Below, piece after piece: positions 42,966 through 62,905 of a stretch of DNA of 64,000 nucleotides. Made by a program: the position numbers and the translations under genes. Origin of the DNA: an uncultured delta proteobacterium (lineage in GTDB: Bacteria > Desulfobacterota > Desulfobacteria > Desulfobacterales > JAHEIW01); NCBI GenBank assembly GCA_963706575.1, contig CAVPNL010000001.1, positions 256,001 through 320,000 on the forward strand, in the 5' to 3' direction. The notes beneath the pieces were generated by a model. The model ran no database searches, had not been told where the DNA came from, and saw only the letters and a list, made by a program, of their open reading frames with translations. Every line of letters starts with the position of its first letter. Within the stretch, counting starts at the first letter, position 1.

Positions 42966-43442
42966 TTATTCCTCATTTGCTGAGCGGCTTCCATCACCGA
43001 ATCGACCACCTGCTTGTATCCGGTGCAGCGGCACAGCACGCCGGACATGTTCTTTCGCACCTCTTCCTCGCTCGGATTCGGATTTTCATTGAGAAATTCA
43101 TAGGCGGTCATCAGCATGCCGGGGGTGCAGTATCCGCACTGCAGGCCGTGTTTTTCGCGAAATGCTTCCTGAATGCGGGTGTAATTGCGCGGCATCTGCA
43201 AGCCCCTCGACGGTCGTGATGTCGGCACCATCGGCCTGGACGGCAAACATCAGGCAGGAACGCACCGCGCGGCCGTTGAACAGAACCGTACAGGAGCCAC
43301 ATATGCCGTGTTCGCATCCGATGTGGGTTCCCACCAGTTCCAGATCGTTTCTTAAAAAATCAACCAGAAGGCGCCGGGGCTCTACCCAACGCTCATAGTC
43401 CACGCCATTTACATTTACTGCGATGCGACGACTGTCTGCCAT
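42962..43442 (-). pseudogene. 2x[2Fe-2S] small subunit (CoxS/HmfC-like), split by a +1 frameshift (real or sequencing error)
   Basis: GCEHGICGSCTV is in one frame; IQEAFREKHGLQCGYCTPG...CRCTGY is in another. The minus strand reads CAC CCG C ATT CAG, an extra base at ~43175. Confidence 0.85.
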
Positions 43443-43443
43443 T

Positions 43444-44325
43444 TTATTGACCTCCATTGAGCATCTTCCATGCCTCTTGCAATCCTCTTTTTACGAAAAC
43501 CCGTGCCATGTCCATACGATATTCAGCCGAAGCGTGATAATCGGGTTCGGTGTCGGTCTCCTCAGCGGCCTGTTGAGCCGCTTCTGCGATCAGTTTTTCG
43601 GTAATTTTTTGACCCGCCAATAGCGCTTCAGCTTCTTGCGCGCGCACCGGGGTCGGGGCGACACCGCCCATCGAGATTCGCGCTTCGCTGCACACCCCTG
43701 CCGCTTCGGTCAAAAGCAAAATGCCTACCGCCACAATGGCAAAATCACCCGAACGTCGACTCAGTTCCATAAAAGACCATCCCGTATTCTGCGGCAGGGC
43801 CGGAATTCTTACTTCCACCAGAAGATCCGACGGCTCCAGCGAAGTCGTCAGATAGGTCAAAAAGAATTCTTCGGGCTGCAATATTTTATCTCCGGACGGC
43901 CCCAAGACCTTTAGCATTCCATTGAGGGCACACAGTGCGGTCGGTATTTCGGCTGAAGGGTCGGCATGCACCAGGCTGCCGCCAATGGTTCCACGATTTC
44001 TAATGGTGCTGTGCCCGATAAATGATATGGCCTTGGAGAGGATGGGCCATTTTTCGACGACCACCGGTGATTGCTCAATATCTCTTTCGCGGGTTAACGC
44101 CCCAATTACAAGCTCATCGCCTTCGGTTTTTATGTATTCGAGTTCCCTGATCCCATTGATGTCGATCAGAATTTCGGGACGGGCCAGTCGGAAATTCATC
44201 ATGGGGACCAGGCTCTGCCCCCCTGCGATTATCTTGGCCTCATCTCCGTAGCGATCCAGCAGATCGATGGCCTCTTCGACTGTTTGGGGACTGAGATATT
44301 CAAAAGCGCATGGTTTCATATCCAT
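43444..44325 (-). CDS. FAD-binding medium subunit (CoxM/HmfB-like)
   Basis: MKPCAFEY, AGGQSLVPMMNFRLARP, IRNRGTIGGS..HADPSAE, RRSGDFA; no Fe-S insert. Confidence 0.93.
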   Translation of the reverse strand: MDMKPCAFEYLSPQTVEEAIDLLDRYGDEAKIIAGGQSLVPMMNFRLARPEILIDINGIRELEYIKTEGDELVIGALTRERDIEQSPVVVEKWPILSKAISFIGHSTIRNRGTIGGSLVHADPSAEIPTALCALNGMLKVLGPSGDKILQPEEFFLTYLTTSLEPSDLLVEVRIPALPQNTGWSFMELSRRSGDFAIVAVGILLLTEAAGVCSEARISMGGVAPTPVRAQEAEALLAGQKITEKLIAEAAQQAAEETDTEPDYHASAEYRMDMARVFVKRGLQEAWKMLNGGQ

Positions 44326-44343
44326 TCTCCTGTGGTGATAACT

Positions 44344-44784
44344 CTAAAGCGACTTTAATTCCTTGCCGATTTGCTTAAAAAATTGACCCAGCATCATTTT
44401 AGCGATTCCGCTGATCAGCCTTTGCCCGACCCCTGCGATCAGCCCGCCGACCTGTCCCTCGCCCTGATAGGAAACGATGGTGCGCTGGTCTTGATGGGAC
44501 AGTTCAATCAGGGCCTCTCCTTTTACGAATCCGGGGATGCCGCTGCCTTCGACAACCAGGCGGTATTTTTCCGGAGGCTGGGGATCTGCCACTTCGGCCA
44601 TCCCTTTGTAGGTTCCTTTAATGGCGGCGATGCCGATCTTTAATGTGGCATCATATTTCCCGGGTTCGATTTCCTCTAATTTTTCACATCCCGGGATGGC
44701 TTTTTCGAGATGCCGTGGATTGGTTAAAACCTCCCAGACCTTTTCCTGGGTGGCATTGAATTTGTACGTTCCTTCCAGTTTCAT
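44344..44784 (-). CDS. coxG: CoxG-family (SRPBCC/START fold) protein
   Basis: VWEVLTNP..L..AIPGCE, GGLIAGVGQRLI. Confidence 0.9.
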   Translation of the reverse strand: MKLEGTYKFNATQEKVWEVLTNPRHLEKAIPGCEKLEEIEPGKYDATLKIGIAAIKGTYKGMAEVADPQPPEKYRLVVEGSGIPGFVKGEALIELSHQDQRTIVSYQGEGQVGGLIAGVGQRLISGIAKMMLGQFFKQIGKELKSL

Positions 44785-44806
44785 AAAAATCTCCGTAGCA
44801 GCTAGA

Positions 44807-47230: not shown

Positions 47231-47341
47231 GCTTAATTCTCTCCTTGTTTTATAGTGGTTGTTAAAAAAACGTTGCGGTATTCAAACGTTTTTTTCTACA
47301 ATCACTTATGCCGCACTGCGGTATAAAAGCGCTTAAATCAG

Positions 47342-48034
47342 CTAGTCTTTAAACCACTCAAGTGTATGAATGTCATATTCGATGGTGATCTTGCGGTTCA
47401 AGCTGGCATCCAGCAACTCAGCTTCAAAACGATCTGCAAAAACCATTTCTCCGGACAAAATAGGCGGTGTGCCTGAAAATATCACAATGCCGCCAATTCG
47501 GTCATTTAACTGCTCCTGGACGAGTCGGATCAAATTTTCAGGCGGTAGAATGGATCCGAGAGTTGACTCCTGGTAAATGTTTTTTTGTCCATCTTTAATT
47601 GCCCAGCTGCGAACTTGAATCTGATCCCAGGTCTCTTTGACTTCCTCGTAATTCCATAAGTTTCTGGAGAGGATGGTGGGACAGACCTGTTTTGATTTGC
47701 GGATATCAAGTCTTTCCAGCTCCCGATCGGTGTGGTCACTGGCAAGCCCGACGTAGATGCTGTTTTCATCGATAAGCAGGAAAAACTCAACCTCACCGGA
47801 AGTTTCCCGGCCTTCGACCTGAATCGCGTCCTTTTGAGTCAATCCCCAGGCCGGTTTGGGGTATTGGGTCGGAACTGAAGGCGGGGGTTCAACGCCCTCT
47901 TTGGCCAGTTCTTCAATATGCTTGCGAACAGCCGATTGATCGCGTCCGGTATAACCACAAAGCACGGCCCCGTTTACCTCATAGCCGATCTCTCTTTTGC
48001 CGGTTTTTTCTTCAACTATAAATTGGAATATCAT
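47342..48034 (-). CDS. DUF2848-family protein
   Basis: GYTGRDQSAVRKHIEELAKEGV.PP.SVP, TSGEVE, SDHTDRELE, SKQVCP. Confidence 0.85.
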   Translation of the reverse strand: MIFQFIVEEKTGKREIGYEVNGAVLCGYTGRDQSAVRKHIEELAKEGVEPPPSVPTQYPKPAWGLTQKDAIQVEGRETSGEVEFFLLIDENSIYVGLASDHTDRELERLDIRKSKQVCPTILSRNLWNYEEVKETWDQIQVRSWAIKDGQKNIYQESTLGSILPPENLIRLVQEQLNDRIGGIVIFSGTPPILSGEMVFADRFEAELLDASLNRKITIEYDIHTLEWFKD

Positions 48035-48036
48035 CG

Positions 48037-49683
48037 CTATCCGCGCTCCTTTTTGTCTTGCTTTTCCCTGTCCCACCGGCGCAGCTCTCTTCGGAGGATT
48101 TTGCCGGAGGATGTTTTTGGAAGCTCTTTCAGAAACTCGATTTCCCTCGGATATTTATAAGGTGCAATGATGTTTTTGACATGATCTTGAAGCGCCTTGG
48201 CCAATTCCGGTGTGGAATCGTAGCCGTCATGCAGGACAACCCAGGCTTTCACTTTTTCACCCATTTCCGGATCCTTGACACCGGCCACGCCGGACTCCAG
48301 CACGGCTTCATGTTCCTGCAGCGCTGTTTCAACATCAGCCGGTGAGATGCGGTACCCATGACAGGTCATGATATCGTCGGATCTGGCGCCGTACCAGAAA
48401 TAGCCATCTTCATCCATATGGGCCAGGTCTTTGGTATCATACCAGTTGTCGGGGAGAGAAACGTCTTTCATTTGTGCGGGCATCTTAAAGTACTCCGTAA
48501 AAAGGCCCGGATGATCATTGCGAATGGCAAGATGGCCCATTTCACCCGGCGCAAGGCGCTCACCCTTGTCATTTACAATCGCGACTTCAATTCCCGGGAG
48601 GGGTTTTCCCATGGACCCGATCTTCACCGGCAACTGGGTCTGGGTCGTGCAGAATTCGTGGGCTTCGGTTTGTCCCATGCTGTCAATAATTTTAACGCCG
48701 AATCGTCTCTTCCATTCACGCCAGGTCTCGGCCAGCAGAGGTTCTCCGGAACTAAGGCAGTATTTTAAGGAACCGGTATCGTATTTTTTCTCGGCATCTT
48801 TGACCGCCAGCATCATTCGATATATCGTCGGAGTGCCTGCAAATATGGTGATTTTGAAATTCTGGATGTATTCATAAGCCCTTTCGGAATCAAAACGCTC
48901 ATCCGCGTAAATGGCGGTGGCAACCCCCCATCTGAAGGCAAATAAAAAATTATGTCCCAGGGCATACATCCAGGTCAGGGCGGTTGGACCGCCGCAGATA
49001 TCGCCTTTTTCCAACCCCATGGTAAATTTGCCGATGGGATCTCCGGCGCCAATGATAAACCGATGGCCGTGGACGACCCCTTTGGGCGCACCGGTAGTTC
49101 CCGAGGTGTACAGGAAATATGCGGGATCATCTTTATGGGTTTCCACAAATGGCAGGGATGCGGCGTCCTCCTTTAGAAGGTCTGCGTAAGAAATCTGATC
49201 GCCTTGCGTATCGCCGATGACAATGACGTGCTTGAGGGTTTCACACTTGGGTCGTATGTTCTCTATGGCTTCTATATAGCTGCTGGTCGTGATGACAGCC
49301 GCGGCCTCGCTATTGTTGATAATATGCTCCAGTTCATATTCTCGCAGCATGGTGCTGGTTGGGATGGGGACCGCCCCGATTTTCTGTCCGCCAAGAAAGG
49401 AAACCATGTATTCCGGCCGGTTGGGGGTCCGGATGAGATAGGTATCGCCTTTCGATATGCCGAGCCGGTGCAGGGCACTGGCAAAACGATCGGTCATATC
49501 TTTTAGATCCTGATAGGTGATTTGCTGATCTTTGTAGTAGATCGCAACATCCTGCCCACGGCCATGCTGCGCCCAATAGTCAACGATGAGCCTGGCCATA
49601 TTCAATTTTTCAGGAATCTCCAATCGGAAAAATCCTTTAGAATCCATCCGTTGAAAAGTTTCGTCCATTTGATCGGATTTCAT
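48037..49683 (-). CDS. AMP-forming acyl-CoA synthetase (benzoate/medium-chain CoA ligase-like)
   Basis: YTSGTTGAPKG, SSGEPL, MGQTE, RSDD, PYKYPRE, LPKTSSGKI. Confidence 0.93.
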   Translation of the reverse strand: MKSDQMDETFQRMDSKGFFRLEIPEKLNMARLIVDYWAQHGRGQDVAIYYKDQQITYQDLKDMTDRFASALHRLGISKGDTYLIRTPNRPEYMVSFLGGQKIGAVPIPTSTMLREYELEHIINNSEAAAVITTSSYIEAIENIRPKCETLKHVIVIGDTQGDQISYADLLKEDAASLPFVETHKDDPAYFLYTSGTTGAPKGVVHGHRFIIGAGDPIGKFTMGLEKGDICGGPTALTWMYALGHNFLFAFRWGVATAIYADERFDSERAYEYIQNFKITIFAGTPTIYRMMLAVKDAEKKYDTGSLKYCLSSGEPLLAETWREWKRRFGVKIIDSMGQTEAHEFCTTQTQLPVKIGSMGKPLPGIEVAIVNDKGERLAPGEMGHLAIRNDHPGLFTEYFKMPAQMKDVSLPDNWYDTKDLAHMDEDGYFWYGARSDDIMTCHGYRISPADVETALQEHEAVLESGVAGVKDPEMGEKVKAWVVLHDGYDSTPELAKALQDHVKNIIAPYKYPREIEFLKELPKTSSGKILRRELRRWDREKQDKKERG

Positions 49684-49695
49684 TTGATTTCCCCT

Positions 49696-50370
49696 TTATT
49701 TTTCTTCCTGGGTTTCAATTTTATCGGCGATCGTCTTCTCGGTGTTTTCAAGATGACAAATCAAGGCGTGAAAGGCCTTAAGCGGATTTTCTTCTTTAAG
49801 ACCGGCAAAAATAGCGCGATGCTCATCAATCACCTGTTTCATCCGAGAGTAATCTTCGATGGCTCTGACGCCCATGAGGTGCATCTGATCTCTCAGGTTG
49901 TCGAGAATCGATTCGATTTGCTGGTTTCCAATCTTGGAGGCCAGATAAAGGTGAAATTGTTTGTCGTATTCGATAAAGCCCAGCCTTTCAGTCCGGTTTA
50001 GCATCTTTTCCTGATTGCTGATGTTTTTATCGATTTCCTTAATATCCGCTTCAGTAAGCCGCGTGGTAATTTTTTTTATAACGTAACCCTCGATAATTCG
50101 ACGAATTTCAAAAACTTCCCGAACCTGCTGGGTCGTAAGCTTGCAGATCTCAACGCCTTTTCCCGGAACAAAGGCGACCATGCCCTCGCGGCTCAATTCT
50201 AACAGGGCTTCTCTTACCGGTGTGCGAGAAACCCCGAGTGCCTCGGCCAGTCTCTTCTCGTTCTGCAGTTCGCCCGGTTCGAGGGCGCCGGTGATGATCA
50301 GTTCTTTGAGCTTATCAAAGGCCTGTTCTTTCAGTGACTTCGCACGAGAGATGGGTATTATTTGCTCCAT
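49696..50370 (-). CDS. GntR-family (FCD) transcriptional regulator
   Basis: LAEALGVSRTPVREAL, DKQFH, EHRAI; start 50370 or 50391. Confidence 0.94.
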   Translation of the reverse strand: MEQIIPISRAKSLKEQAFDKLKELIITGALEPGELQNEKRLAEALGVSRTPVREALLELSREGMVAFVPGKGVEICKLTTQQVREVFEIRRIIEGYVIKKITTRLTEADIKEIDKNISNQEKMLNRTERLGFIEYDKQFHLYLASKIGNQQIESILDNLRDQMHLMGVRAIEDYSRMKQVIDEHRAIFAGLKEENPLKAFHALICHLENTEKTIADKIETQEEK

Positions 50371-50440
50371 ATTCGGTCCTTTTATTGACAATTTAATAAA
50401 GAAAACAATTAGTTATACGGTTATTGGCCTGAATGAGTGT

Positions 50441-50618
50441 GTGATATATCGAATATTGCATACCGACATGGCGGGGCGATGTCAATAAGAAATTGTAAAA
50501 TATATTCGCGCATAATTGAATCGTAAAACGTGCCGCCAGGCACCTTAAGCCAGGTTTTGGAGAAGCCATCAAAATATTTGACTTGAAATATTGTATGTAG
50601 TATGCAACATGCAACATA
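50441..50618. promoter_or_regulatory. Divergent promoter region with 7-bp periodic YATGCAA repeats (putative GntR operators)
   Basis: Plus strand TATGTAG TATGCAA CATGCAA CATA (50594-50618); minus strand TATGCAA TATTCGA TATATCA (50462-50442), downstream of a minus-strand TTGACA (50480-50485). Confidence 0.45.
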
Positions 50619-50672: not shown

Positions 50673-51344
50673 ATGGAAAACCTGAGCAAATTAGAACCGC
50701 CGGGCACCTTACAGAACCTGGCCTACGAAAGAATCAAAACCCTTTTGATTAACGGCCAATTGGAATTTGATGAAGTTTATTCCGCCAATCAATTTGCAGA
50801 ACTATTGGGTGTATCGCGTACGCCGATTCGCGAGGCACTTCTGCAGCTGACTGCCGAAGGGTTTTTCATTTCCCTCAGAGGAAGGGGCTTTAAGATTAAA
50901 GAATTTTCTGAAAAAGAAATCAGAGATTTCTTTGAAACCCGAAAAATGATTGAATCCTATGTGATCGAACAACTGGTGGAAGCGGTCACTGAAGAAGATT
51001 TAGAACCGCTTGAGGACAGTTTAGAAAGGATGCTCAATGGTCACGACCGGGAGGAAATTTACCGCTTTCTGGATGCCGACAAATCTTTTCATATGAATCT
51101 AATCCATCGCTATAAAAATAATTTACTTGAATCCATCATGGAAAATATTCGTGATTTTATTTCTATCTTTGGGCAGAAAGCGCTGAGGAGCCCCGGAAGG
51201 GTTCAGGAAGTTATCCGAGAGCATCAATGTATTGTCAAGGCATTACGACAAAATGATAAAAACAAAGCCGTGCAGGCCATCAATGACCATTTAGATGCAA
51301 CCGAGAAATCATTAATCGAAAATTTACACCACAAATCGGGGTGA
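50673..51344 (+). CDS. GntR-family (FCD) transcriptional regulator
   Basis: AELLGVSRTPIREAL, DKSFH, EHQCI. Confidence 0.94.
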   Translation: MENLSKLEPPGTLQNLAYERIKTLLINGQLEFDEVYSANQFAELLGVSRTPIREALLQLTAEGFFISLRGRGFKIKEFSEKEIRDFFETRKMIESYVIEQLVEAVTEEDLEPLEDSLERMLNGHDREEIYRFLDADKSFHMNLIHRYKNNLLESIMENIRDFISIFGQKALRSPGRVQEVIREHQCIVKALRQNDKNKAVQAINDHLDATEKSLIENLHHKSG

Positions 51345-51391
51345 TGACGCTGTGATCCGCAATACCCCCTCGAACAAAGAGAGGTGAAGCG

Positions 51392-52162
51392 ATGAGAGTG
51401 ACCAGTATCCAGCTTGGACTGGAAGACCGTCCCAAAGAGAAAAATGTTGAACATGCCCTCGGCCTGATCGACCAGGCACCGGATAGTGAACTTTTCCTGC
51501 TGCCGGAAATCTGGCCCTGCGGTTTTTTTTGTTTTGATCGCTACAAAAGCGACAGTGAATCCGTTGATGGCGCGATTGTCACTGCTTTCCAGGAAAAGGC
51601 CCGGGAGAAAAATTGTCACATTCTTATGGGAAGTATGGTCGAAAACGATGGTGACGATTATTACAATACCAGCATTTTTTTAAATCCCAGCGGTGAAATT
51701 GCAGCCCGCTACCGTAAAATTCACCTTTTTGGCTATCAATCTGACGAGACCGAAATCCTGACTCCCGGCAAAGAAGTTGTGGTGACCGAAACACCCTGGG
51801 GCGTCAGCGGTTTTTCAACCTGTTATGATTTGCGCTTCCCCGAGCTTTTTCGGAGCATGGTGGATAACGGCGCCCGGTTCTTTCTGGTGGCATCCGCCTG
51901 GCCGCAGGTACGTCTGGAAGCCTGGCGACTGTTTAACCGGGCGCGGGCGCACGAGAACCTTGCCTTTCTTATTTCGTGCAATTGCGCCGGCGCCAACGCC
52001 GGCAAACAATATGCCGGTCACAGCATGATCGTTGACCCGCTGGGGCAGGTCATCGCAGAAGGGGGTGAAGAAGAGCAACTGGTGACGGCCGAGATCGATC
52101 CGGGTCTTGTCGATACGGTGCGCCAGGATTTCAGTGCCTTGGACGATCGGGTTTTGAAATGA
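51392..52162 (+). CDS. Carbon-nitrogen hydrolase (Nit/omega-amidase-like)
   Basis: Catalytic triad LPE, YRKIHLF, TCYDLRFPE; also RARAHEN and GHSMIVDP. Confidence 0.93.
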   Translation: MRVTSIQLGLEDRPKEKNVEHALGLIDQAPDSELFLLPEIWPCGFFCFDRYKSDSESVDGAIVTAFQEKAREKNCHILMGSMVENDGDDYYNTSIFLNPSGEIAARYRKIHLFGYQSDETEILTPGKEVVVTETPWGVSGFSTCYDLRFPELFRSMVDNGARFFLVASAWPQVRLEAWRLFNRARAHENLAFLISCNCAGANAGKQYAGHSMIVDPLGQVIAEGGEEEQLVTAEIDPGLVDTVRQDFSALDDRVLK

Positions 52163-52196
52163 TGGCCAACCCTTAATCATCTAGAAAGGAAAAATC

Positions 52197-52562
52197 ATGC
52201 TAAAAGAACATCTGGAATTTTTTGCCTTAGACCTCTCGGTTGGCTGGGAAACACCGCCGGGTTACCCCGAAGGAATCGAACAGAAGATTCTGGCGGGATC
52301 GCTGGATGAGGAAAATAAAAAAGGATCCCGCACCCGCCTGCTGCGGTTTCAACCCGGCGCCTTCACCACTGAACCGTTTGAACACGATCACTGGGAAGAA
52401 GTTTTTCTGGTATCCGGTTCACTGACCGTTGGGGAAGAGACATTTCAGCCTTACACGTATGCCTGCAGGCCACCCAACACTCCGCACGGTCCTTTCAGCA
52501 GTCAGGACGGGTGCCTGCTTGTCGAAACGCATTTTTACGAAGCAGCGGGACAAATTGTTTAA
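52197..52562 (+). CDS. Small cupin-domain protein (ChrR-like cupin)
   Basis: RTRLLRFQPG, HDHWEEVF, YACRPPNTPHGPF. Confidence 0.85.
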   Translation: MLKEHLEFFALDLSVGWETPPGYPEGIEQKILAGSLDEENKKGSRTRLLRFQPGAFTTEPFEHDHWEEVFLVSGSLTVGEETFQPYTYACRPPNTPHGPFSSQDGCLLVETHFYEAAGQIV

Positions 52563-52652
52563 TTTGACATTTATTCCGAATTGATCATGTAAAAGCACGG
52601 TATCAACCCTTTAACCGGCTGTTTCACTGATGCCAAAATAGGAGGAGGGATT

Positions 52653-53852
52653 ATGACAACACTTAAAAGACACCAAAAAGTCAAATTCGTACTGGTAATA
52701 GCCGCTGTGGCTATCATCAGTCTGGCCATTTCCCTGCCGGCAGTCCATGCCGGGCAGCCCATTAAAATAGGCGTTGCCTACGGTCTGCAAGGTGTGTGGA
52801 GTGACTGGTGCAAGAAAAACATCGTGGCGGTTGAAATGGCGGTCGAAGAAATCAATGCCGCCGGCGGGGTGAACGGAATGCCGCTGGAGACCATTATATA
52901 CGATACGGCCAGCAAACCGGCCGAAGCCACCCGCCTGGTGCGTAAACTGGCCACCGATGACAAGGTTTTAGCCATTTTAGGACCCTTTTCCAGCTCCGAG
53001 TGCGAGGTGGCCTTTCCGGTAGGTAACCGCATCGGGATTGTCATGATCTCCCAGGCGTCTTCCAAACCGGGGGTTGCCGCCAAGTGGCCTTACGCCTTTC
53101 GCAATAAAATCGATGAGCTCAGACTGGCCTTTCCGGCCATCAAAAAATGGATGATGATTCATAAAATTAAAACCGTGGCCATCGTTCATGATGCCAAGGA
53201 CGCCGTCGGTCGTGCATTGGGTACCATGGTTTTGCCGGGAGTCAGCAAAAAGCTGGGACTTCAGATCGTCAACGAAGGTAACTATGTGACCTATACCACC
53301 GGTGATTTCGACATGCGGCCGCAGGTGACAAAGCTTAAAAGTATGCAATTTGACGGCCTGGTGTTTGGCGGTCTTTACATGGACGGCGTCACGTTTATCA
53401 AAGAAGCCCGGCGCCAGGGTCTTAATCAGCCCATGGTCGGGGGCAATCCGCTGATGAGTTTGCAATTTCCCCGCAAGGGCGGCAAGGCAGCGCAAGGTGT
53501 TTTTACATCTTCGGAATTTTATTACTGGATGGAAGAACCCAAGGTGCAGAAGTTTACCAAAGAGTTTATCAATAGGGCCAAGGCCAAAGGCATCGATCCT
53601 CCCGAGCCGTTGCAGTTTGACGTCAATGTCTACGATGCCATTTACATGCTGGCGCATGTCATCAAACAAAACGGCATTACCAACAAACCCGCAGACCTGG
53701 CGCGGGATCGTGAACTGATCATGAAGGGCCTGACCGATCTAAAAGACTTTCCGGGACTGGCCAGCAAGATCAGATTTAACGATAAGGGCGATGCTGTCAG
53801 AGACGTTTATGTCGTCAAGGCCCAGGGCGATGAATGGGTCCTGGTTGAATAG
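52653..53852 (+). CDS. livK: Liv-type ABC substrate-binding protein
   Basis: Signal peptide, IKIGV, EEINAAGGVNG, YAFRN; C-terminus resembles 38366-39544. Confidence 0.9.
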   Translation: MTTLKRHQKVKFVLVIAAVAIISLAISLPAVHAGQPIKIGVAYGLQGVWSDWCKKNIVAVEMAVEEINAAGGVNGMPLETIIYDTASKPAEATRLVRKLATDDKVLAILGPFSSSECEVAFPVGNRIGIVMISQASSKPGVAAKWPYAFRNKIDELRLAFPAIKKWMMIHKIKTVAIVHDAKDAVGRALGTMVLPGVSKKLGLQIVNEGNYVTYTTGDFDMRPQVTKLKSMQFDGLVFGGLYMDGVTFIKEARRQGLNQPMVGGNPLMSLQFPRKGGKAAQGVFTSSEFYYWMEEPKVQKFTKEFINRAKAKGIDPPEPLQFDVNVYDAIYMLAHVIKQNGITNKPADLARDRELIMKGLTDLKDFPGLASKIRFNDKGDAVRDVYVVKAQGDEWVLVE

Positions 53853-53857
53853 AACCT

Positions 53858-53891
53858 GTGCGTTCCCGCAATTGAAGCAGCGGGAGCGCAC
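53858..53891 (+). terminator. Stem-loop after the binding-protein gene (mRNA stabiliser or partial terminator)
   Basis: GTGCGTTCCCGC-loop-GCGGGAGCGCAC with no long U tract. Confidence 0.5.
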
Positions 53892-53924
53892 TTAATCCAT
53901 ATTTGATACAAAAAGGGTGCTGAA

Positions 53925-55310
53925 ATGTTTTATGTCCTTTTTGCTTTAATTTGTATTTATGCCATCTTTACGCTCTGGTTTTCGATAAGCGCTTTTTGGG
54001 AGAAAGAACGCCAAGCCGGGATCAGAGGTCTGATTTGCACGTTTGCGATGGTGGTTTTTTTATTTTTCTACGCCCAGGCTCAGGCCGGCGGTATGTTAGA
54101 TGGAACATTTGTGAAAATCCTCCAGGGCATTATTGCTGCGCTGATGATCCTGTTTACGATTTCGATGTTTGTTCCCATCGGTCGCCGACCCGAAGCCCTG
54201 AAAGGAACCGAGGGGATGCGCCAAGGCGAGACAGAACGGTTCAACCAGAAGGATACGGCCTTCAATATTGCCCATGTGGGCGCATACGGTCCTGAAGTGA
54301 GCAAACAGCGCTGGGCTCTTCAGAGCCGGGATCCTTTCGGGGGCATCTACTGGACGCTTGTAATGGGATTGCGGCCGCAGGCGGACGGCAAGGTCAACCC
54401 GCAAAGACAGGATGGTTTTTCTAGCGAAGAGATCACAAAGGAAATCAAACGAACCGCCCGTTATTGCGGGGCGGATCTGGTGGGCATTACCAAAGTCAAA
54501 CAGGATTTTTGTTACAGTGAAACGTTTTCATATGAGGAATCCAAACTGGGTACCGGACCCGCGGTGACATCACCGGTAGATATAAAACATAAATATGTCA
54601 TCGTTTTAGGCCGCGAAATGAATTTTCATCGAATACAGAACACCCTCTCTTCGAAGAATGATGAAAGTCTGGGTGAAATCGGAAAGACCTACTATGAACT
54701 GGCCCAGATTGCCTGTGCGTTGGCGGCATTCATCCGACAGCTGGGTTATTCCGCCAAAGCCCATCATGTGCGCAATGAACAGGTTTTGCAGGTACCGTAT
54801 GCGGTTGATGCCGGCCTCGGTGAACAGGGGCGCCATAACTATATCATTAGCGAAAAATACGGTCCACGGGTACGACTGGCAACGGTGACAACCGACCTCG
54901 AATTGATCGAAGACAAACCGGTCGATATCGGCGTACAGGATTTTTGCGAAAGCTGCCGATTATGCGAAATCAACTGCCCGGCCCAGGCCTTGGCCGCTGA
55001 AAAGACCGAGGTCAGAGGATACCGTAAGTGGCCCCAAGACTATACCAAATGCTTTGGATTCTGGGTTACAGGCGGCAATACGTTTGGCTGTACACTGTGT
55101 TTGAAAGTCTGCCCCTGGAACAAGCCCCGTACGTTTGTTCATCGCGTCAGTATGTATGGCGCCGCGCGTTCGATTGTGGCCCGCCGGGTCCTTTACTGGA
55201 TCTCGCTGATCTTTTACGGCAAACTCTATCGCTGGAAACGACTGCCGTTGCCGGATGAGATCGAGATGCCCCCGGAGACCCAGAGCTGGGGCAAGCAATC
55301 ATCAAATTAG
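53925..55310 (+). CDS. rdhA: Reductive dehalogenase homologue with three N-terminal transmembrane helices ('hybrid' RdhA)
   Basis: GADLVGIT, AVDAGLGEQGR...YGPRVRLATVTTDL, FCESCRLCEINCP, CFGFW...CTLCLKVCPWNKP. Residues 1-85 contain three hydrophobic segments and no RRxFLK. Confidence 0.85.
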   Translation: MFYVLFALICIYAIFTLWFSISAFWEKERQAGIRGLICTFAMVVFLFFYAQAQAGGMLDGTFVKILQGIIAALMILFTISMFVPIGRRPEALKGTEGMRQGETERFNQKDTAFNIAHVGAYGPEVSKQRWALQSRDPFGGIYWTLVMGLRPQADGKVNPQRQDGFSSEEITKEIKRTARYCGADLVGITKVKQDFCYSETFSYEESKLGTGPAVTSPVDIKHKYVIVLGREMNFHRIQNTLSSKNDESLGEIGKTYYELAQIACALAAFIRQLGYSAKAHHVRNEQVLQVPYAVDAGLGEQGRHNYIISEKYGPRVRLATVTTDLELIEDKPVDIGVQDFCESCRLCEINCPAQALAAEKTEVRGYRKWPQDYTKCFGFWVTGGNTFGCTLCLKVCPWNKPRTFVHRVSMYGAARSIVARRVLYWISLIFYGKLYRWKRLPLPDEIEMPPETQSWGKQSSN

Positions 55311-55376
55311 TTGGATTAAACTCTAGGGTGCCGGTTTTTGGGGTAGCTGGATCGGTCATATCTGAAAGGAACAACA

Positions 55377-56253
55377 TTGTTTTTACAGCAGCTTTTTAAC
55401 GGCATTATGCTGGGCAGTACATATGCATTGATCGCCATCTCGTTTACCCTGTTGATGGGGGTCTTGAACATGCTCAATTTTGCCATTGGCGAACTTTTTA
55501 TGCTGGGCGCTGTTTTTGGGCTGACCTTTGTCAATTTTGGAATGCCGTTCTACCTCGCTTTTCCTCTGGCAATGATCTGTACGGGTTGCGTTTGCTTGAT
55601 TATCGAACGCTTTTCTTTTCGACCACTACGCAACGCGCCACCGTCAATTCCCTTGCTCAGCACCATGGGATTTTCGATTTTAATCGGAAGCACAGCTGAA
55701 AATATCTGGGGATCCGAGCGATCCCAATTTCCCCAGTGGATCGAGCCTGTAGATTTTTATATCGGACCGGTTCTGATCTCATCCACCGAACTCATCATCC
55801 TTGCGGCGGCGGTGGTTATCATGATCGGCTTGGATCTATTTCATTCAGCGCACGCGGATCGGTCGCGGTATGCGCGCGGTGGCCGAAAACATCGATACGG
55901 CCAGTATTTTGGGAGTTGATTCCAATCTGATTATTCCGGCTGCTTTTTTTGCCTCAGGTGCCTTGGCGGGTGCCAGCGGGATCCTATTTGGGCTGAGCTT
56001 TTCCATCGTATCCCCCTTTATGGGAATGGCGCCCGGAATTAAAGGGATTGCGGCGATGATTGTGGGCGGCATGGGAAATATCAGGGGGGCTATCGTCGGA
56101 GGCATGTTGATCGGTATCATTGAAGTGCTCAGTGTGGGATATCTGGGCGCGACTGCGAAGGATTTTGCGGTATACGGTGCATTATTTCTGGCGCTGGTCA
56201 TCCGGCCGCAGGGAATTCTGGGAATGCTCCAGACTGAAAGAGAGAGGATTTAA
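55377..56253 (+). pseudogene. livH: Liv-type permease LivH split by a +1 frameshift (probable sequencing error)
   Basis: CTA TTT C ATT CAG CGC at 55836-55851; removing one T restores ..LFIQRTRIGRGMRAVAEN.. Confidence 0.85.
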
Positions 56254-56255
56254 CG

Positions 56256-57115
56256 GTGAGTATCTATCATCTGGACCTGCTTTCGGCACTGGGAATAAAC
56301 ATATTGTTGGCCCTGAGTGTTTACTGCCCCATGGTCACCGGGCAGCTTTCCATTGGCAATGCCGGTTTTATGGCCATCGGGGCGTATATTTCAGCGATGT
56401 TGACCGTTCATCTTCATATTCCGCTATTTGCGGCATTGATTGCGGCCGGTGTCGTCGCCGGATTCATCGGCCTGCTGGTGGGGTTCCCGGCCCTCAGGTT
56501 AAAGGGTCTTTTTCTGGCCATGGCGACCCTTGGATTTGGTGAGATCGTCCGCAATTTTTTTATGAATTTTCTTGAGCCCTTAACCGGCGGGGCCTATGGT
56601 TTTAGAGGTATCGGCAGCGATCCGATCTCGGTCTTCTGGATCTGGGGCTGGGTCATATTCTTTTTAATCTTTCTGCATTTCCTTTCACGCTCGCGGATGG
56701 GTCTGGCCATGCTGGCCACCCACGATGACGAAACGGTCAGCGAACTTATGGGTATTAACATCGTTCGCTTAAAGATCGGGGCATTTGGCCTGGGTGCATT
56801 TATTGCCGGTGTCGCCGGTGGTTTGTTTGCCCATTATTACCTTTACATCGAACCGGAGTTTTTTAATGTATGGAAGTCGATTTACATGGTGCTTTTTGTG
56901 ATCATGGGCGGCATGTTGACGGTTTGGGGTGGCGTCATGGGTGCCGCTTTTTTACATTGCTACCCGAATTTACCCGGGTTTTGCATGATTGGCGCGGTGC
57001 GTTTTTTGGATTGGTTATTATTGTGCTGATGATTATTCGGCCTTCGGGGATTCTAACCCGGGATATGTTTCGCTGGGATTTTTGGCGGCCATCGTTAAAG
57101 GAGGCCAAATCTTGA
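56256..57115 (+). pseudogene. livM: Liv-type permease LivM split by a -1 frameshift in a T6 run (probable sequencing error)
   Basis: T6 at 56948-56953; a T7 restores GAAFFTLLPEFTRVL...RPSGIL. Confidence 0.85.
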
Positions 57116-57879
57116 ATTCGACACCGATTTTAAGTTTAAAGGATGTTGAAAAAAAATTCGGCGGGTTAACTGCCGTAGGCAGCTTGAATATGCAGGTCTT
57201 TCCGGGGCAAATTTGTGGTCTCATCGGTCCGAACGGTGCTGGCAAGACCACGGTCTTTAATTTAATCACCGGGGTTTACCCCTGCGATGGAGGCGAGGTT
57301 TTTATAAGCGATCGGGAAATAACTTCTGCCAAGCCCTATCGGATCACACGAATGGGTGTTGCGCGTACCTTTCAGACCATTCGGCTCTTTGCGAATCTGA
57401 CCACCTGGGAGCATATTTTGATCGCTCAGAATTTTTTAGCTCGAAGTCACAATGGCAGGCGGTTGCTGCCGGACAGGCAGCGCGAAAAGGAACTAAAGGC
57501 CGAGGCTCAGGAAATTCTCACCCTGCTCGATTTATGGCAAGACCGGCAACGCAAAGCGGTAACACTTCCTTACGGCAGTCAACGCAGAGTAGAAATTGCC
57601 AGGGCGCTGGCCACCCGTCCCAAACTGCTGCTGCTGGATGAGCCGGCCGCCGGAATGAATATGCGCGAGACCGAGGATTTGCTCCATATCATCACAAAAA
57701 TACATGCACAAAAACAGGGCATGGCGATCCTGGTGATCGACCACGACATGGATTTTGTTATGAAAATTTGCGAATATATTTTTGTTCTGAATTTCGGTAT
57801 TAAAATTACGGAGGGAGCGCCGGATGACATTCAGCAGGACGAGAAGGTCAAAGAAGCCTATCTGGGGAAGGAGGAATAG
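57112..57879 (+). CDS. livG: Liv-type ABC ATP-binding protein
   Basis: GPNGAGKTT, VARTFQ, DEPAAGMN; the TTG start overlaps the livM stop. Confidence 0.92.
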   Translation: MNSTPILSLKDVEKKFGGLTAVGSLNMQVFPGQICGLIGPNGAGKTTVFNLITGVYPCDGGEVFISDREITSAKPYRITRMGVARTFQTIRLFANLTTWEHILIAQNFLARSHNGRRLLPDRQREKELKAEAQEILTLLDLWQDRQRKAVTLPYGSQRRVEIARALATRPKLLLLDEPAAGMNMRETEDLLHIITKIHAQKQGMAILVIDHDMDFVMKICEYIFVLNFGIKITEGAPDDIQQDEKVKEAYLGKEE

Positions 57880-58596
57880 GTGCTGCGGATATCAAATCTT
57901 GCGGCCGGATATGGAAAAATCAAGGTTTTAAAAGGCGTGTCTCTTGAGATCGAAGAAGGAGAAATCATTACACTGATCGGGGCAAACGGGGCCGGCAAGA
58001 CAACGCTTTTGAAAACGATTTGCGGATTGATTCAGGCCAGTTCCGGTTCCATTGAATATGAGGGCGAAGCCGTGCATCGCAAATCGCCTTCGGCGCGGGT
58101 GAAAAAGGGGTTGGTGCTTGTGCCGGAAGGGCGCAATATCCTGCGAAGGATGACGGTCTACGAAAACCTGTTGATGGGCGCTTATTGCCGGGCGGATCGA
58201 ACCGAAATTAAGAACGATATCGAAGCGGTTTTTGAGCGGTTCCCGGTACTGGCAAAACGGATGAATTTGTCGGCCGATGTGCTATCAGGCGGCGAACAGC
58301 AAATGCTGGCCATCGGGCGCGCCATGTTAGCACGGCCGAAAATTCTCATGATGGACGAACCTTCTCTGGGGCTGTCTCCCATTCTGATCAAGGAAATTTT
58401 TTCGATTATTGCCGATTTGCACAGCTCCGGCATGACCATTTTGCTGGTGGAGCAAAATGCGCTCAAGGCTCTGCAGGTGGCAAACCGTGGCTATGTTATG
58501 GAAACCGGCGAGATCGTTATGGCGGATACGTGTGAAGGCCTCTTATGTGATGAGAAGCTTTGTGATGCCTATCTTGGCGGCAAGGTTGATCCCTAA
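57880..58596 (+). CDS. livF: Liv-type ABC ATP-binding protein
   Basis: GANGAGKTT, LSGGEQQM, DEPSLGLSP. Confidence 0.94.
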   Translation: MLRISNLAAGYGKIKVLKGVSLEIEEGEIITLIGANGAGKTTLLKTICGLIQASSGSIEYEGEAVHRKSPSARVKKGLVLVPEGRNILRRMTVYENLLMGAYCRADRTEIKNDIEAVFERFPVLAKRMNLSADVLSGGEQQMLAIGRAMLARPKILMMDEPSLGLSPILIKEIFSIIADLHSSGMTILLVEQNALKALQVANRGYVMETGEIVMADTCEGLLCDEKLCDAYLGGKVDP

Positions 58597-58731
58597 GGAC
58601 CTGATAGGCTGCCAAAAACGGATCTTAAGTTTTGATGTCTCCTTCCAACAATTGAAATAAAATTTGGCGGTGTGGTTCGGATGTTTGAAAGTCAGCCGGT
58701 CGGCAGCGAGCTGCAGCAAAAAGGTGGTTAA

Positions 58732-59055
58732 ATGAGCTATGCATATTTGGTCATATATGAGGTGCAGCCTGAAGATCCTGAAGCTTTTCTGCGATACTAT
58801 TTTGAAACTCACATTCCGATTGTCTGGACATTTCCGAAGATTCGGCGAATTCAAATAGAGCGCGGAGTGGATGGCGGTGACTTTTTTATGATCGCGCGTT
58901 TTACCTTTGATACTCTGGAAGATCTACGGATGGCCATTACATCCAAGGAACGAGAACGTGCGCGGGCTGATATGCAAAATTTTCCTGCTTACCATGGACG
59001 GGTAAGCCGTCAGGCAGTTGAGATAGTGGAAGTAGGACCTGATGGGATCCAGTAA
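58732..59055 (+). CDS. EthD-family small alpha/beta-barrel protein
   Basis: PEDPEAF.RYY.ETHIP...FDTLE.L..A..S.E....ADMQNF. Confidence 0.8.
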   Translation: MSYAYLVIYEVQPEDPEAFLRYYFETHIPIVWTFPKIRRIQIERGVDGGDFFMIARFTFDTLEDLRMAITSKERERARADMQNFPAYHGRVSRQAVEIVEVGPDGIQ

Positions 59056-60136
59056 ATCCGATCATAAGGTAAAATTGTTTTCACCATTAAAGTTGCGTGA
59101 GGTCATCATACCCAATAGGATCATGATTTCACCGATGTGCCAGTATTGTGCCAAAGACGGGATTCCGCATGAATGGCACTTCGTGCACCTTGCCACCAGA
59201 GCGGTTGGCGGTGCTGGGATTGTGATGACCGAAGCGGTTGCGGTTGAGCCGGCAGGCCGCATCACGCCTTTTGATGTCGGATTGTGGAATCAAGAACAGC
59301 AGGAAGAATTTTCGCGACTGGCTGCCTTTATCGATAGGCAGGGAGCCATACCCGGGCTGCAACTTGCCCATGCCGGACGGAAAGCATCCCACGCCCGTCC
59401 CTGGGAGGATCGTCGCCCGCTTACGCCAGCCGAGGGGGGGTGGGAGGTTTACGGGCCCAGCCCAATGGCCTGGGATAGCGGTGATCCCATTCCGCTGGAG
59501 TTGACAACCGATGATATAGCTCATCTAACAAAGACATTTCAGCATGCTGCCCTACGCGCTTTTAAAGCCGGATTTCGTCTGCTGGAATTGCACGCGGCCC
59601 ACGGATACCTGCTGCATTCTTTTCTTTCGCCCCTGACAAACCATCGCCGGGACGCGTATGGTGGAAATTTTGAAGGCCGAATACAATTTGTTGTCGAGGT
59701 GGCCAGAGCAATTAGGGAGGTCTGGCCCGCAGGACTGCCGTTTTTCGTTCGAATATCAGCCACCGATTGGGTAAACGATGGCTGGGATTTGGATGATTCC
59801 GTACGATTGGCCAAATTGCTTATTTCTGAAGGCGTAGATGCGATCGATTGTTCAAGCGGAGGAATTTTGCCGGGGATCGATATAAAACCGCATGCCGGCT
59901 ATCAGGTGCCGTTGGCAGAAGAAATTCGGCTTCGGACAGGCGTTCGAACCGTGGCAGTTGGCATGATCAGTGAGCCGAGACAGGCTGAGGACATTATCGC
60001 TAACGATCGGGCGGATTTGATCGCTATCGGTCGACTTGCCTTATGGGATCCTTACTGGCCGCATCATGCCGCAAAAAAATTAAACGCCAAGGTCCAACTG
60101 CCGCGACAGTACGAACGGGCCAATATCTTTAATTAA
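59042..60136 (+). CDS. NADH:flavin oxidoreductase / old yellow enzyme (YqjM/NamA-like)
   Basis: NRIMISPMCQY, QLAHAGRKAS, HAAHGYL, RISATDW, DPYWP. Confidence 0.94.
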   Translation: MGSSKSDHKVKLFSPLKLREVIIPNRIMISPMCQYCAKDGIPHEWHFVHLATRAVGGAGIVMTEAVAVEPAGRITPFDVGLWNQEQQEEFSRLAAFIDRQGAIPGLQLAHAGRKASHARPWEDRRPLTPAEGGWEVYGPSPMAWDSGDPIPLELTTDDIAHLTKTFQHAALRAFKAGFRLLELHAAHGYLLHSFLSPLTNHRRDAYGGNFEGRIQFVVEVARAIREVWPAGLPFFVRISATDWVNDGWDLDDSVRLAKLLISEGVDAIDCSSGGILPGIDIKPHAGYQVPLAEEIRLRTGVRTVAVGMISEPRQAEDIIANDRADLIAIGRLALWDPYWPHHAAKKLNAKVQLPRQYERANIFN

Positions 60137-60200
60137 ACGGGTTTGTGATCATTACAAGTAATGGGTACCACCTATTTGAACAATACTTGGGAGAAGATGA

Positions 60201-61481
60201 ATGTCAATAGCTGTTAGTATACACGGCAAGACGGGCAGACGCTTCGGAATAGCGGAATTGTCGGAAGCGGCCTACGTCAAGGATATTGTACATCCGCTTG
60301 AGCGCTATGATGAAAGGATGACGCCGCTTTCCAGAGGTTACGTACCGCCCGGCGGGTGGCAACAGGAGTTTCTCGACACACTGGTGCCTGCCATCGGCCA
60401 GCAGGGGGCAGTTCCCCGTGACGAGCCGGGATACACCCAGATAGATCTTGCATTGCGAATTGCCGGGTTTCATACTGCCATGGCGACCAACTGCCACACG
60501 GGCAATTGGACGCGGCCGCGGCTCTCTGATGAGCTGGGCTGTTTTTATGATTGGGAAGGAATCTGGAGCCCCGCAATGATCGGGCTGCCTTGGGAACCTC
60601 CGAAATTAGCGGTGGCATCGCCGGCAGAAATGTCTGAAATCGTTAAAGACGCAGCTTTGTTCCTGGGCGCCAGTCTGGTAGGGATCACCGAGCTGAATCG
60701 AAACTGGATTTATAAAAAGGGATGGGAGCGTTACGGTCATAAAGAAATCGATCTGAATGCCAAAATACCGTCCAGCATAAAATATGCAGTCGTCATGGCC
60801 ATTGAAACAAATTATGATTATGTGCGGCATGCGCCGACAGCCAGGGCCAGTGCGGCGGCCGGTTTAGGCTATTCGAAGATGGCAATTCTCAGTCCGGCGT
60901 TAGCCAAGTTTATTGCTTCACTGGGCTATACTGCCATTGCATGCGGCAACGATACGGCCTTGAGTATCCCGCTGGCTGTAGATGCTGGTCTGGGGCAGCT
61001 GGCCCGGTTGGGAACGTTGATTACGCCGGAATTCGGGCCCCGGGTAAGGTTGTGCAAAGTGCTCACCGATCTTCCTTTGAAACCAACAGCTCCGGTTGAT
61101 TTTGGTGTGACCGAATTTTGTCAGATATGCGAAAAATGCGCCGAGTACTGTCCCTCTCAGGCGATCTTATACGGCAAAAGAATTTCCACGGCACGCACCG
61201 TCTCTACCAACCCCGGACTTTTGAAGTGGCCGCTTAACGGCGAAAAATGTTTTCGGTACTGGTATAAAAATGGTGCTAAAACCGAGAAGGGAATGTACCA
61301 TATCGATTGTTATCAATGCATTAATGTATGTCCGTTTAACAAACAGCCGGGAATCGGCCATGATACGGTTCGCTGGTTTATAAGAAAAAAGATTCCATGG
61401 GTAAGCCGGTTGCTGAAGTGGGGCGATGATCTTTTTTATAAAGTACTGTACAAAACCGGCAAGTATGCGTCTAACACCTGA
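60201..61481 (+). CDS. rdhA: Reductive dehalogenase homologue, soluble (no Tat signal, no adjacent rdhB)
   Basis: FLGASLVGIT, YSKM, SIPLAVDAGLGQLARLG.LITPEFGPRVRL, FCQICEKCAEYCP, KWP..GEKC..YW, CYQCINVCPFNK. Confidence 0.9.
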   Translation: MSIAVSIHGKTGRRFGIAELSEAAYVKDIVHPLERYDERMTPLSRGYVPPGGWQQEFLDTLVPAIGQQGAVPRDEPGYTQIDLALRIAGFHTAMATNCHTGNWTRPRLSDELGCFYDWEGIWSPAMIGLPWEPPKLAVASPAEMSEIVKDAALFLGASLVGITELNRNWIYKKGWERYGHKEIDLNAKIPSSIKYAVVMAIETNYDYVRHAPTARASAAAGLGYSKMAILSPALAKFIASLGYTAIACGNDTALSIPLAVDAGLGQLARLGTLITPEFGPRVRLCKVLTDLPLKPTAPVDFGVTEFCQICEKCAEYCPSQAILYGKRISTARTVSTNPGLLKWPLNGEKCFRYWYKNGAKTEKGMYHIDCYQCINVCPFNKQPGIGHDTVRWFIRKKIPWVSRLLKWGDDLFYKVLYKTGKYASNT

Positions 61482-61498
61482 AGCAAGGGGAGGATATC

Positions 61499-62905
61499 AT
61501 GGGCAAAACCAGCAATCGAAAGATGGATCTGCACGGTTTTCTTGAAGAACATCAAGGTCAGTATATTCAAATAAATAAACCGGTAAAACTTGAGCATATC
61601 GGGGCGCTGGTGGCTCAGGCAGATGATACCATTGTCTTTGATAACATAGTAGATTACCCGGGATTTCGCATTGTGGATCAGCTTTTTGTCAATCGCAAGG
61701 CCCAGGCCGCGGTGCTTGGCTGTCAACCGGATGGGGTTGTCAATCGGTTGGTTGAGGTGATGCGCACGGGGCCCAGGACACTCAGAGAAGTAGAAAGTGG
61801 ATCCTGCCAGGATCGTGTTTTTAAAGGTGATGAACTTGATCTGAATGCCTTGCCGGTTCCGGTACACACGCCATTGGATCCCTATCCCTATACAGCCGGA
61901 TTTGCGGTGCACCGACACCTGGATACCGGTAAATTAAACCAGATGTTCCCGCGCTGTGGCGTGCTGAGTCGCAATGAAATGGTGGCGTCATTTGTCACGC
62001 CCACGGCTAATCAAATCCTGGCCAAGTATCGCGAGCAGGAAAAACCCATGCCCCAGGCGCTGGTCATCGGGGCGCACCCGGCCTGGGAACTGGCCTGCTG
62101 TTATTCATATCCCCATGAAGATTTTTGTGAATTGGAGCTGTTTGAAGCCATTAGCGGACAGGTCGGCGAAGTCACCCGCTGTAAAACAGTGGATCTTGTG
62201 GTGCCGGCCGATGCCTCGATTATTATTGAGGGGCTTGTCAGCCCAACCCGCATGGCGCAGGACGGGCCAAATCCCGGACCCAATGCGCTTTTTTGTCCCT
62301 ATGATCAACAACAGCCGGTTTTTGAAGTTACGGCCATAACCATGCGAAAAGATCCGATTTTTCGACACGTGCAGACGACACCTTTTACCGATCACCAGGA
62401 GATGCCGCGGCTCTTCCATGAGGCCATTATTTTCGAGCGCATTAAATCCATGGGATTAAACGTTCATGATGTTCATTTTCCCCAGGGAGGTGCGGCTCAG
62501 GTGGTGATCATTCAAGTCGAGCCAGCCGTGGACGGGCAGGTGACCGATGCACTGATGGCTGCCTTAGGAGCGCCCTGGGCCAACATGAAAATGGCAATCG
62601 CAGTTGATCCGGACATCAATATTTATGACTATCGAGACATTATGTATGCGCTTTCCACACGCGTTGATCCGAGCAAACACACAACGATCATAAACAACGG
62701 TCGGATCTGGCCTTTTGACCCCAGTGCCACACCCGTTGATGGCGCATTTCCGCATACCCAAAAAACGCGGTTGCCTTCCGTGGTCGGAAAGTGGGCCATA
62801 GACGCCACCAAACCGGTTCCGTATCGTGAGGAGGAACGGAAAAATTATGAACGCGCGTGGCCGATCGGCTGGGAAGAGATCAATTTAGAGGATTATTTGG
62901 ATTAA
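61499..62905 (+). CDS. UbiD-family (prFMN-dependent) (de)carboxylase, divergent
   Basis: LDLNALPVP.H...D..PY, CKTVDLVVPADA.IIIEG, VTAITMRKDPIF, VDPDINIYD, KWAIDATKP. Confidence 0.92.
   Translation: MGKTSNRKMDLHGFLEEHQGQYIQINKPVKLEHIGALVAQADDTIVFDNIVDYPGFRIVDQLFVNRKAQAAVLGCQPDGVVNRLVEVMRTGPRTLREVESGSCQDRVFKGDELDLNALPVPVHTPLDPYPYTAGFAVHRHLDTGKLNQMFPRCGVLSRNEMVASFVTPTANQILAKYREQEKPMPQALVIGAHPAWELACCYSYPHEDFCELELFEAISGQVGEVTRCKTVDLVVPADASIIIEGLVSPTRMAQDGPNPGPNALFCPYDQQQPVFEVTAITMRKDPIFRHVQTTPFTDHQEMPRLFHEAIIFERIKSMGLNVHDVHFPQGGAAQVVIIQVEPAVDGQVTDALMAALGAPWANMKMAIAVDPDINIYDYRDIMYALSTRVDPSKHTTIINNGRIWPFDPSATPVDGAFPHTQKTRLPSVVGKWAIDATKPVPYREEERKNYERAWPIGWEEINLEDYLD

Follow-up and report, generated by a model that had tools for sequence, protein, structure and literature searches.

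According to PMC6797604, reductive dehalogenases (RdhA) that lack a twin-arginine translocation (Tat) signal and those of the transmembrane class are abundant in sediments, what they act on and what they do are among the open questions, and no member of the transmembrane class has a shown function. Among UbiD-family enzymes, His297 of HmfF determines furan specificity, and in the pyrrole decarboxylase HudA the corresponding residue is Asn318 (PMC7976604). Bmp8 uses a cysteine pair to debrominate tetrabromopyrrole reductively at position 2 (PMC5577590, PMC7918430). The 64,000-nucleotide stretch of DNA analysed here (the window) is positions 256,001 to 320,000 of contig CAVPNL010000001.1 (assembly GCA_963706575.1), from an uncultured delta proteobacterium. 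On its plus strand, positions 50673-62905 carry a rare gene module that links two such RdhA proteins, RdhA1 and RdhA2, to a non-canonical UbiD and a defined set of partners. The RdhA classes, UbiD, and catabolic dehalogenation clusters are already known, and the module itself is an undescribed variant. A literature search for RdhA with UbiD, covering mostly open-access main texts, returned no description of it; the supplements of PMC12219181 may list neighbours of RdhA2-clade genes, and in the available part of PMC9723747 UbiD serves only as an outgroup.

The core of the module is RdhA2 (60201..61481) and UbiD (61499..62905). Sequence comparison points to the breakdown of a natural halogenated five-membered heteroaromatic acid or amide, in which B12 and thiol dehalogenases would be interchangeable; we put this reading at about an even chance, and name halopyrrole-2-carboxylate as a tentative first guess at the substrate, itself some way short of probable. 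An earlier note on this DNA, made from the letters alone, had proposed a catabolic operon, and that context is supported. The gene order recurs in full or nearly in full in loci L035, L073, L090, L098, and L161+L060, so the synteny is conserved and the arrangement is not due to chance.

Two UbiD-clade patterns, run against 185,579 genomes, picked out 41 loci, many of them cut by contig ends; by their record titles these belong to nine bacterial phyla. RdhA2 and UbiD are adjacent in Desulfobacterota, Sumerlaeota, and Bacillota loci, and the same UbiD clade occurs in six further phyla, with cupin, EthD, old yellow enzyme (OYE), amidase, DUF2848, and UbiX. A metagenome scan covered the best 80 of 264 RdhA2 relatives, some from near-duplicate loci, and 37 of these 80 belong to the RdhA2 clade. 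A clade ubiD lies within 24 of these 37 loci, and rdhA2 stands directly upstream of ubiD in 19 of those 24, as it does in 4 of the 41 genome loci. Companions in the genome loci include cupin (25), EthD (21), OYE, UbiX, and thioredoxin (10 each), C-N hydrolase (9), DUF2848 (8, at 45% identity or more), IDI-2 (7), and amidase-signature amidase (4). The importer type differs between loci and may be a Liv system, a sodium symporter, or a TRAP transporter.

RdhA2 (426 residues) and RdhA1 (53925..55310; 461 residues) are 33% identical to each other. Both pass the dehalogenase model TIGR02486 (209.7 bits for RdhA2 and 168.6 bits for RdhA1; cut-off 160.35), and each has two Fe-S motifs. The Tyr and Arg of the sets Tyr256/Arg317 in RdhA1 and Tyr224/Asn250/Arg283 in RdhA2 align with positions of PceA and NpRdhA that we take to be active-site residues. 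That both proteins might instead be epoxyqueuosine reductases (QueG) is suggested by the QueG names that some RdhA2 relatives carry at the Joint Genome Institute and by the lack of a QueG above cut-off in this genome. Their scores with the QueG model TIGR00276 are 59.3 bits (RdhA1) and 46.5 bits (RdhA2) against a cut-off of 200, however, and the DYH motif of two annotated QueG is missing from both. In a tree of 48 rows, with seven annotated references and long outgroup branches, both proteins fall inside the RdhA branch (99/97) with QueG outside, in keeping with their naming as RdhA in the earlier note. The QueG identity was rejected on score, motif, and tree position, and it retains almost no likelihood. 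A QueG-like Fe-S protein encoded at window 15593-16507 (minus strand) belongs to neither the QueG nor the RdhA group.

Neither RdhA carries a Tat motif and rdhB adjoins neither gene, as had been seen before; flanking gaps of 72/66 bp for RdhA1 and 64/17 bp for RdhA2 leave no space for it, and both marks of respiratory RdhAB, the Tat signal and the adjacent rdhB, are absent. The earlier proposal of a cytoplasmic pathway with two position-specific dehalogenases is not supported in that form, for RdhA1 is of the transmembrane (hybrid) class and is not part of the core. Neither protein has the BhbA/NpRdhA architecture (461 and 426 residues versus 704-1072). By hydropathy only, the N terminus of RdhA1 contains three hydrophobic segments (residues 1-19, 31-49, and 65-83) with a W-E-K-E loop, and the protein is therefore assigned as membrane-anchored rather than soluble; three segments also occur in 7 of 8 orthologues and two in the other. 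These segments fall within the one to three N-terminal helices of hybrid RdhA, which likewise lack Tat and rdhB. The basic first loop suggests that the catalytic domain faces the cytoplasm. RdhA1 accompanies RdhA2 in 2 of 6 genome loci and in 7 of the 37 metagenome loci drawn from the best 80 of 264 relatives, and because it is missing from the well-flanked loci L044 and L091, it is accessory.

RdhA2 has no membrane helix and forms a tight clade, with identities of 67-92% that then fall to about 45%, and it is nearer PceA (192.7 bits) than NpRdhA (96.5 bits). Genes of this clade occurred in none of 400 other genomes of the phylum and none of 60 relatives, so no cultured anaerobic host was found. 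The structure model of RdhA2 was poor (predicted local distance difference test 59) and was not used, and a complex prediction for UbiD with RdhA2 scored 0.00, which is no answer. The same genome encodes four further RdhA, at G000:C1:130283-134010 (L002) and G000:C3:542197-544494 (L001), in which no Tat motif was found. One of these pairs, soluble plus transmembrane, lies beside a molybdopterin oxidoreductase and a PaaK-like ligase, and L078 shows a similar arrangement; the other, a soluble tandem, lies beside a Liv importer and a coenzyme A (CoA) ligase.

The UbiD of the module contains three UbiD domains and the UbiD fold, and its best match in both sequence and fold is HmfF (TM score 0.78; 26-27% identity). 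Residues were counted in the query and the best 120 of 723 relatives, 121 sequences in all. Arg152 is kept in 120 of these, and Asp255 and Gly260 in all 121. The region corresponding to E-X4-E reads D-G-P-[SN]-P-G-P throughout, so the R-Xn-E-X4-(E/D) motif is absent, and under either alignment no acid occupies positions 259-263, the site of the usual catalytic Glu. Most of the aligned, more distant UbiD representatives (82) keep the second acid (E..E), including near neighbours that share the TDHQ motif, and its loss is therefore derived and fixed. The enzyme is thus non-canonical, and the ordinary reversible (de)carboxylation assigned to it by the earlier note should not be assumed. The invariant Asp298-His299-Gln300-Glu301 may supply another acid. 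His299 aligns with HmfF His297, and the position of HmfF Arg304, presumably a functional residue, is taken by His307.

Both ubiX and cobS are present in this genome, and the sole ubiX above cut-off lies inside a phenylphosphate synthase/carboxylase-like cluster (L004, G000:C1:212000-226000). Fusions of UbiD with a reductase were absent from the 14 of 150 distant representatives that were scanned, and no close relatives of UbiD or of the AhpD-like protein described below were found on plasmids. The second acid is also missing from the distant UbiDs P0500, P0501, P0504, P0513, and P0534, some of which lack the Arg too, and the non-canonical branch therefore extends beyond this clade. UbiD is fused to a Rieske protein in P0512 and to a metallo-beta-lactamase fold in P0509. 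A paralogous module in the same genome (L003, G000:C12:56000-71200) has a GntR 65% identical to that of the window, DUF2848, an aldehyde ferredoxin oxidoreductase, a Liv importer, two FAD oxidoreductases, and a canonical UbiD.

Loss of the acid would also suit an aliphatic substrate. In this proposal, an alpha,beta-unsaturated halo-acid or halo-amide (haloacrylate, halomaleamate, or halomaleimide) would be reduced at its C=C bond by OYE and decarboxylated by UbiD with halide loss, an elimination that needs no proton donor. Acrylic acids are substrates of UbiD enzymes, OYE and EthD recur often (10 and 21 of 41 loci), and RdhA2 is closer to PceA than to NpRdhA; the match of His299 to the heteroatom-reading residue of HmfF and a neighbouring operon of heteroaryl-CoA hydroxylase type, however, favour a heteroaromatic ring. 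We consider the aliphatic substrate improbable. A bolder proposal gives the acid-less UbiD and its reductase partner a joint, new reaction of prenylated flavin mononucleotide (prFMN), in which decarboxylation would be coupled to halide loss or the dehalogenated carbon would be captured and carboxylated. This would account for the loss of Glu and would make B12 and thiol dehalogenases interchangeable in one undescribed pathway for natural organohalogens spanning nine phyla, and we regard it as a long shot.

Loci without RdhA carry an AhpD/CMD-like protein of about 220 residues with a CxxC motif. Across the 41 genome loci, the AhpD-like gene is present in 18, RdhA2 in 6, and both in none. It lies directly upstream of ubiD in 7 genome loci, the slot that rdhA2 holds in 23 other loci. 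Among 42 whole genomes, 9 encode an RdhA2-clade protein (in one case as a fragment at a contig end) and 29 give an AhpD-like hit, which reaches 55% identity or more in 22; 4 genomes lack the two altogether, and in no genome do they occur together. The AhpD-like clade was found in none of 200 other Acidimicrobiia. All 14 sequences compared share the CxxC, His115, and Asn192, and these align with Bmp8, which ranks second of 13 solved matches to the AhpD-like profile (E 2e-12). Replacement of RdhA2 by a Bmp8-like thiol protein would give independent, indirect support for a dehalogenation step. One clade member, P0390, comes from a named Dactylosporangium strain (67% identity), the only name seen that is not that of a metagenome-assembled genome.

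The C-N hydrolase of the module (51392..52162) belongs to the nitrilase superfamily, has the Glu/Lys/Cys motifs, and has yeast YLR351C and nitrilase homolog 2 as its nearest solved relatives, a type that we take to act as an omega-amidase. The adjacent Cupin_7 protein (52197..52562) carries H-x-H/Y-W-E-E plus a distal His, a predicted metal site. Two genomes of the same genus, G014 and G002, retain the C-N hydrolase and cupin (79-95% identity), whereas the importer, both RdhA, and most of ubiD are gone from the locus. In L160 (G014:C28) and L159 (G002:C66), internal deletions join the C-N hydrolase and cupin to ubiD remnants, and the module is therefore being lost in this genus. The earlier note had made amide hydrolysis the first step; survival of these two genes in both genomes is more in line with a role that is separable and probably downstream.

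A divergent operon at window 42965-50391 (minus strand) encodes GntR, a CoA ligase, DUF2848, a molybdenum (Mo) hydroxylase large subunit, CoxG, an FAD subunit, and a 2Fe-2S open reading frame that ends abnormally, and G014 also retains this CoA-ligase/DUF2848/Mo-hydroxylase operon. It is 54% identical to a Geobacillus plasmid copy, and no crotonase-fold gene was seen in it. On plasmids, the best matches of the Mo enzyme share their operons with genes for FAD and 2Fe-2S subunits, a CoA ligase, a crotonase-fold protein, and UbiD, a layout that we take to be that of a furoate-type heteroaryl-CoA hydroxylase and that the divergent operon resembles. By analogy, a pyrrole version of the furoate-type route would yield 2-oxoglutaramate, an omega-amidase substrate, which is a hint that fits a downstream amidase and a nitrogen ring. 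For DUF2848 no useful solved relative and no paper were found, and its atlas clusters contain only DUF2848.

In the proposed pathway, the Liv system would import the solute, and the soluble cobamide enzyme RdhA2 would remove halide, drawing on a ferredoxin-type donor whose gene lies elsewhere. Supplied with prFMN by the UbiX of the genome, the acid-less UbiD would (de)carboxylate the ring beside the heteroatom using another proton source. Where present, membrane-anchored RdhA1 would take off a further halogen, possibly with electrons from the membrane chain. Reduction, opening, and deamidation of the product would fall to OYE, EthD, cupin, C-N hydrolase, and, in most relatives, DUF2848. Where the lineage is mostly aerobic, the RdhA2 step would be performed by a Bmp8-like thiol enzyme together with thioredoxin.

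Several observations weigh against breakdown of a halogenated heteroaromatic acid by interchangeable dehalogenases. An uncharacterised peroxidase-related protein is the top solved match of the AhpD-like profile, and other AhpD-like proteins also have the Cys/His/Asn set. In the UbiD tree, a single clade (96) and L040 account for the RdhA2-linked UbiDs and are nested within AhpD-linked sequences, so that the label changes only once or twice and the exclusivity of RdhA2 and AhpD-like protein is therefore no statistical result. The two may co-occur, as one protein of each kind comes from a single 42,628-base contig, and in L162 and L163 the AhpD-like gene lies apart from the module. Taxon names are the basis of the aerobe/anaerobe split, with which Promineifilaceae agree poorly. 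No clade UbiD accompanies RdhA2 in 13 of the 37 loci among the best 80 of 264 relatives; 9 of these 13 have 0.8-3.3 kb downstream and 4 end within 200 bases. The Mo hydroxylase occurs in only 11 of 44 genomes, which leaves the pyrrole analogy a hint only, and it was rejected as a core part on this count. The nearest solved relatives of LivK are amino-acid binders with weak scores, and the importer carries frameshifts in this assembly. Finally, Fdc1 requires the acid at position 282, and E282Q is inactive (PMC5818171).

Two other explanations draw on these points. In the first, the shared reductive step is not a dehalogenation, and RdhA2 and the AhpD-like protein would cleave an N-O, S-O, or O-O bond or an epoxide in a non-halogenated heterocycle. 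The B12 fold also performs epoxide reduction in QueG, AhpD proteins reduce peroxides, the hosts, by their record titles, come from soil, peat, lake, and marine sediment with no common halogenated substrate evident, and the transmembrane class has no shown function according to PMC6797604. Both RdhA nevertheless keep the dehalogenase Tyr and Arg, lack DYH, and group with dehalogenases, and of the thiol enzymes that rank among the top solved matches, the sole one to which an activity is assigned is a debrominase; we judge a non-halogen step rather unlikely. In the second, RdhA2 and the AhpD-like protein are not equivalent: the latter would be a peroxide scavenger or a prFMN-maturation helper lost in anaerobes, and RdhA would have been recruited separately, for example as an electron sink. 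The few label switches, the possible co-occurrence, and the unlinked genes agree with this, as does the need of some UbiD enzymes for maturases (PMC13040415). Both genes, however, hold the same slot directly upstream of ubiD, and their paralogues run in parallel, with two AhpD-like proteins in some loci and two or three RdhA in others. The known maturase PhdC has a different fold. Non-equivalence is accordingly less likely still than a non-halogen step, and interchangeable dehalogenases acting on a halogenated heteroaromatic acid or amide are the reading preferred here.

All 13 co-oriented open reading frames of the earlier note were found in its order and families, with intergenic gaps of -14 to 135 bp. 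Scans for promoters and terminators gave what chance would (18 vs 16.2 and 18 vs 16.8), so we infer co-transcription from spacing alone. The first gene encodes a GntR/FCD regulator (50673..51344; Pfam FCD and GntR), divergent from a second GntR at 49696-50391. An imperfect 19-base inverted repeat (79%) at window 50445-50618, between these divergent gntR genes, is a candidate shared operator. The importer comprises a LivK-type solute-binding protein (52653..53852; top solved match 97.5 bits, no ligand predictable), the permeases LivH (55377..56253) and LivM (56256..57115), and the ATPases LivG (57112..57879) and LivF (57880..58596), both assigned by family models. One-base frameshifts, each within a T run, interrupt livH near 55842 and livM near 56947. 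They are absent from contigs of related strains, orthologues such as those in L073 are intact, and they are the only two frameshifts among 44 LivH/LivM-query matches in the genome; they may reflect a local assembly error or recent decay. The EthD-family alpha/beta-barrel protein (58732..59055; TIGR02118 55.4 vs cut-off 30.5) has Tyr23, His27, and Arg74 invariant in 12 of 12 aligned sequences, and BH0200 was its only match. The NamA-like OYE (59042..60136) scores 372 bits, under the cut-off of 431.

The UbiD subfamily is widely auto-labelled furan-2,5-dicarboxylate decarboxylase, yet it is without a residue essential in the model enzyme, which implies a new proton source or new prFMN chemistry. 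The AhpD-like protein offers a small, cofactor-free stand-in for easy substrate screening. Like the catabolic RdhA BhbA of Comamonas 7D-2 and NpRdhA, the RdhA of this module lack Tat and RdhB and adjoin a solute importer, and RdhA1 groups with them and with transmembrane types (100/99). Those enzymes, however, have about 700-1070 residues, their B12 domain is duplicated, and a reductase is often fused to them, features found in neither RdhA1 nor RdhA2, and RdhA2 lies on another branch. RdhA1 resembles the hybrid/transmembrane RdhA (PMC6797604; PMC12219181) in its three N-terminal helices, its lack of Tat and rdhB, and an ExE in the first loop. It differs in that ExE occurs in only 3 of 8 orthologues and in its place within a defined catabolic module, whereas the class, according to these papers, has no shown function or substrate.

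RdhA2 matches by description the 'simplified cytosolic' RdhA of Desulfobacterota and Chloroflexota (PMC12219181), being short, soluble, and without the vestigial B12 domain. It differs in forming its own tight clade tied to UbiD, which goes unmentioned in the available text of that source. The UbiD of the module shares with HmfF, a furan-2,5-dicarboxylate decarboxylase and its best match, and with HudA, a pyrrole-2-carboxylate decarboxylase, the aligned position of the heteroatom-reading His. It departs from them in its low identity, its missing catalytic Glu, its His307 in place of Arg304, and its linkage to reductases. The replacement for RdhA2 is, like the tetrabromopyrrole debrominase Bmp8, a CxxC-His-Asn protein of the AhpD/CMD family, although Bmp8 is biosynthetic and only distantly related, and the AhpD-like protein is encoded in other loci rather than in the window.

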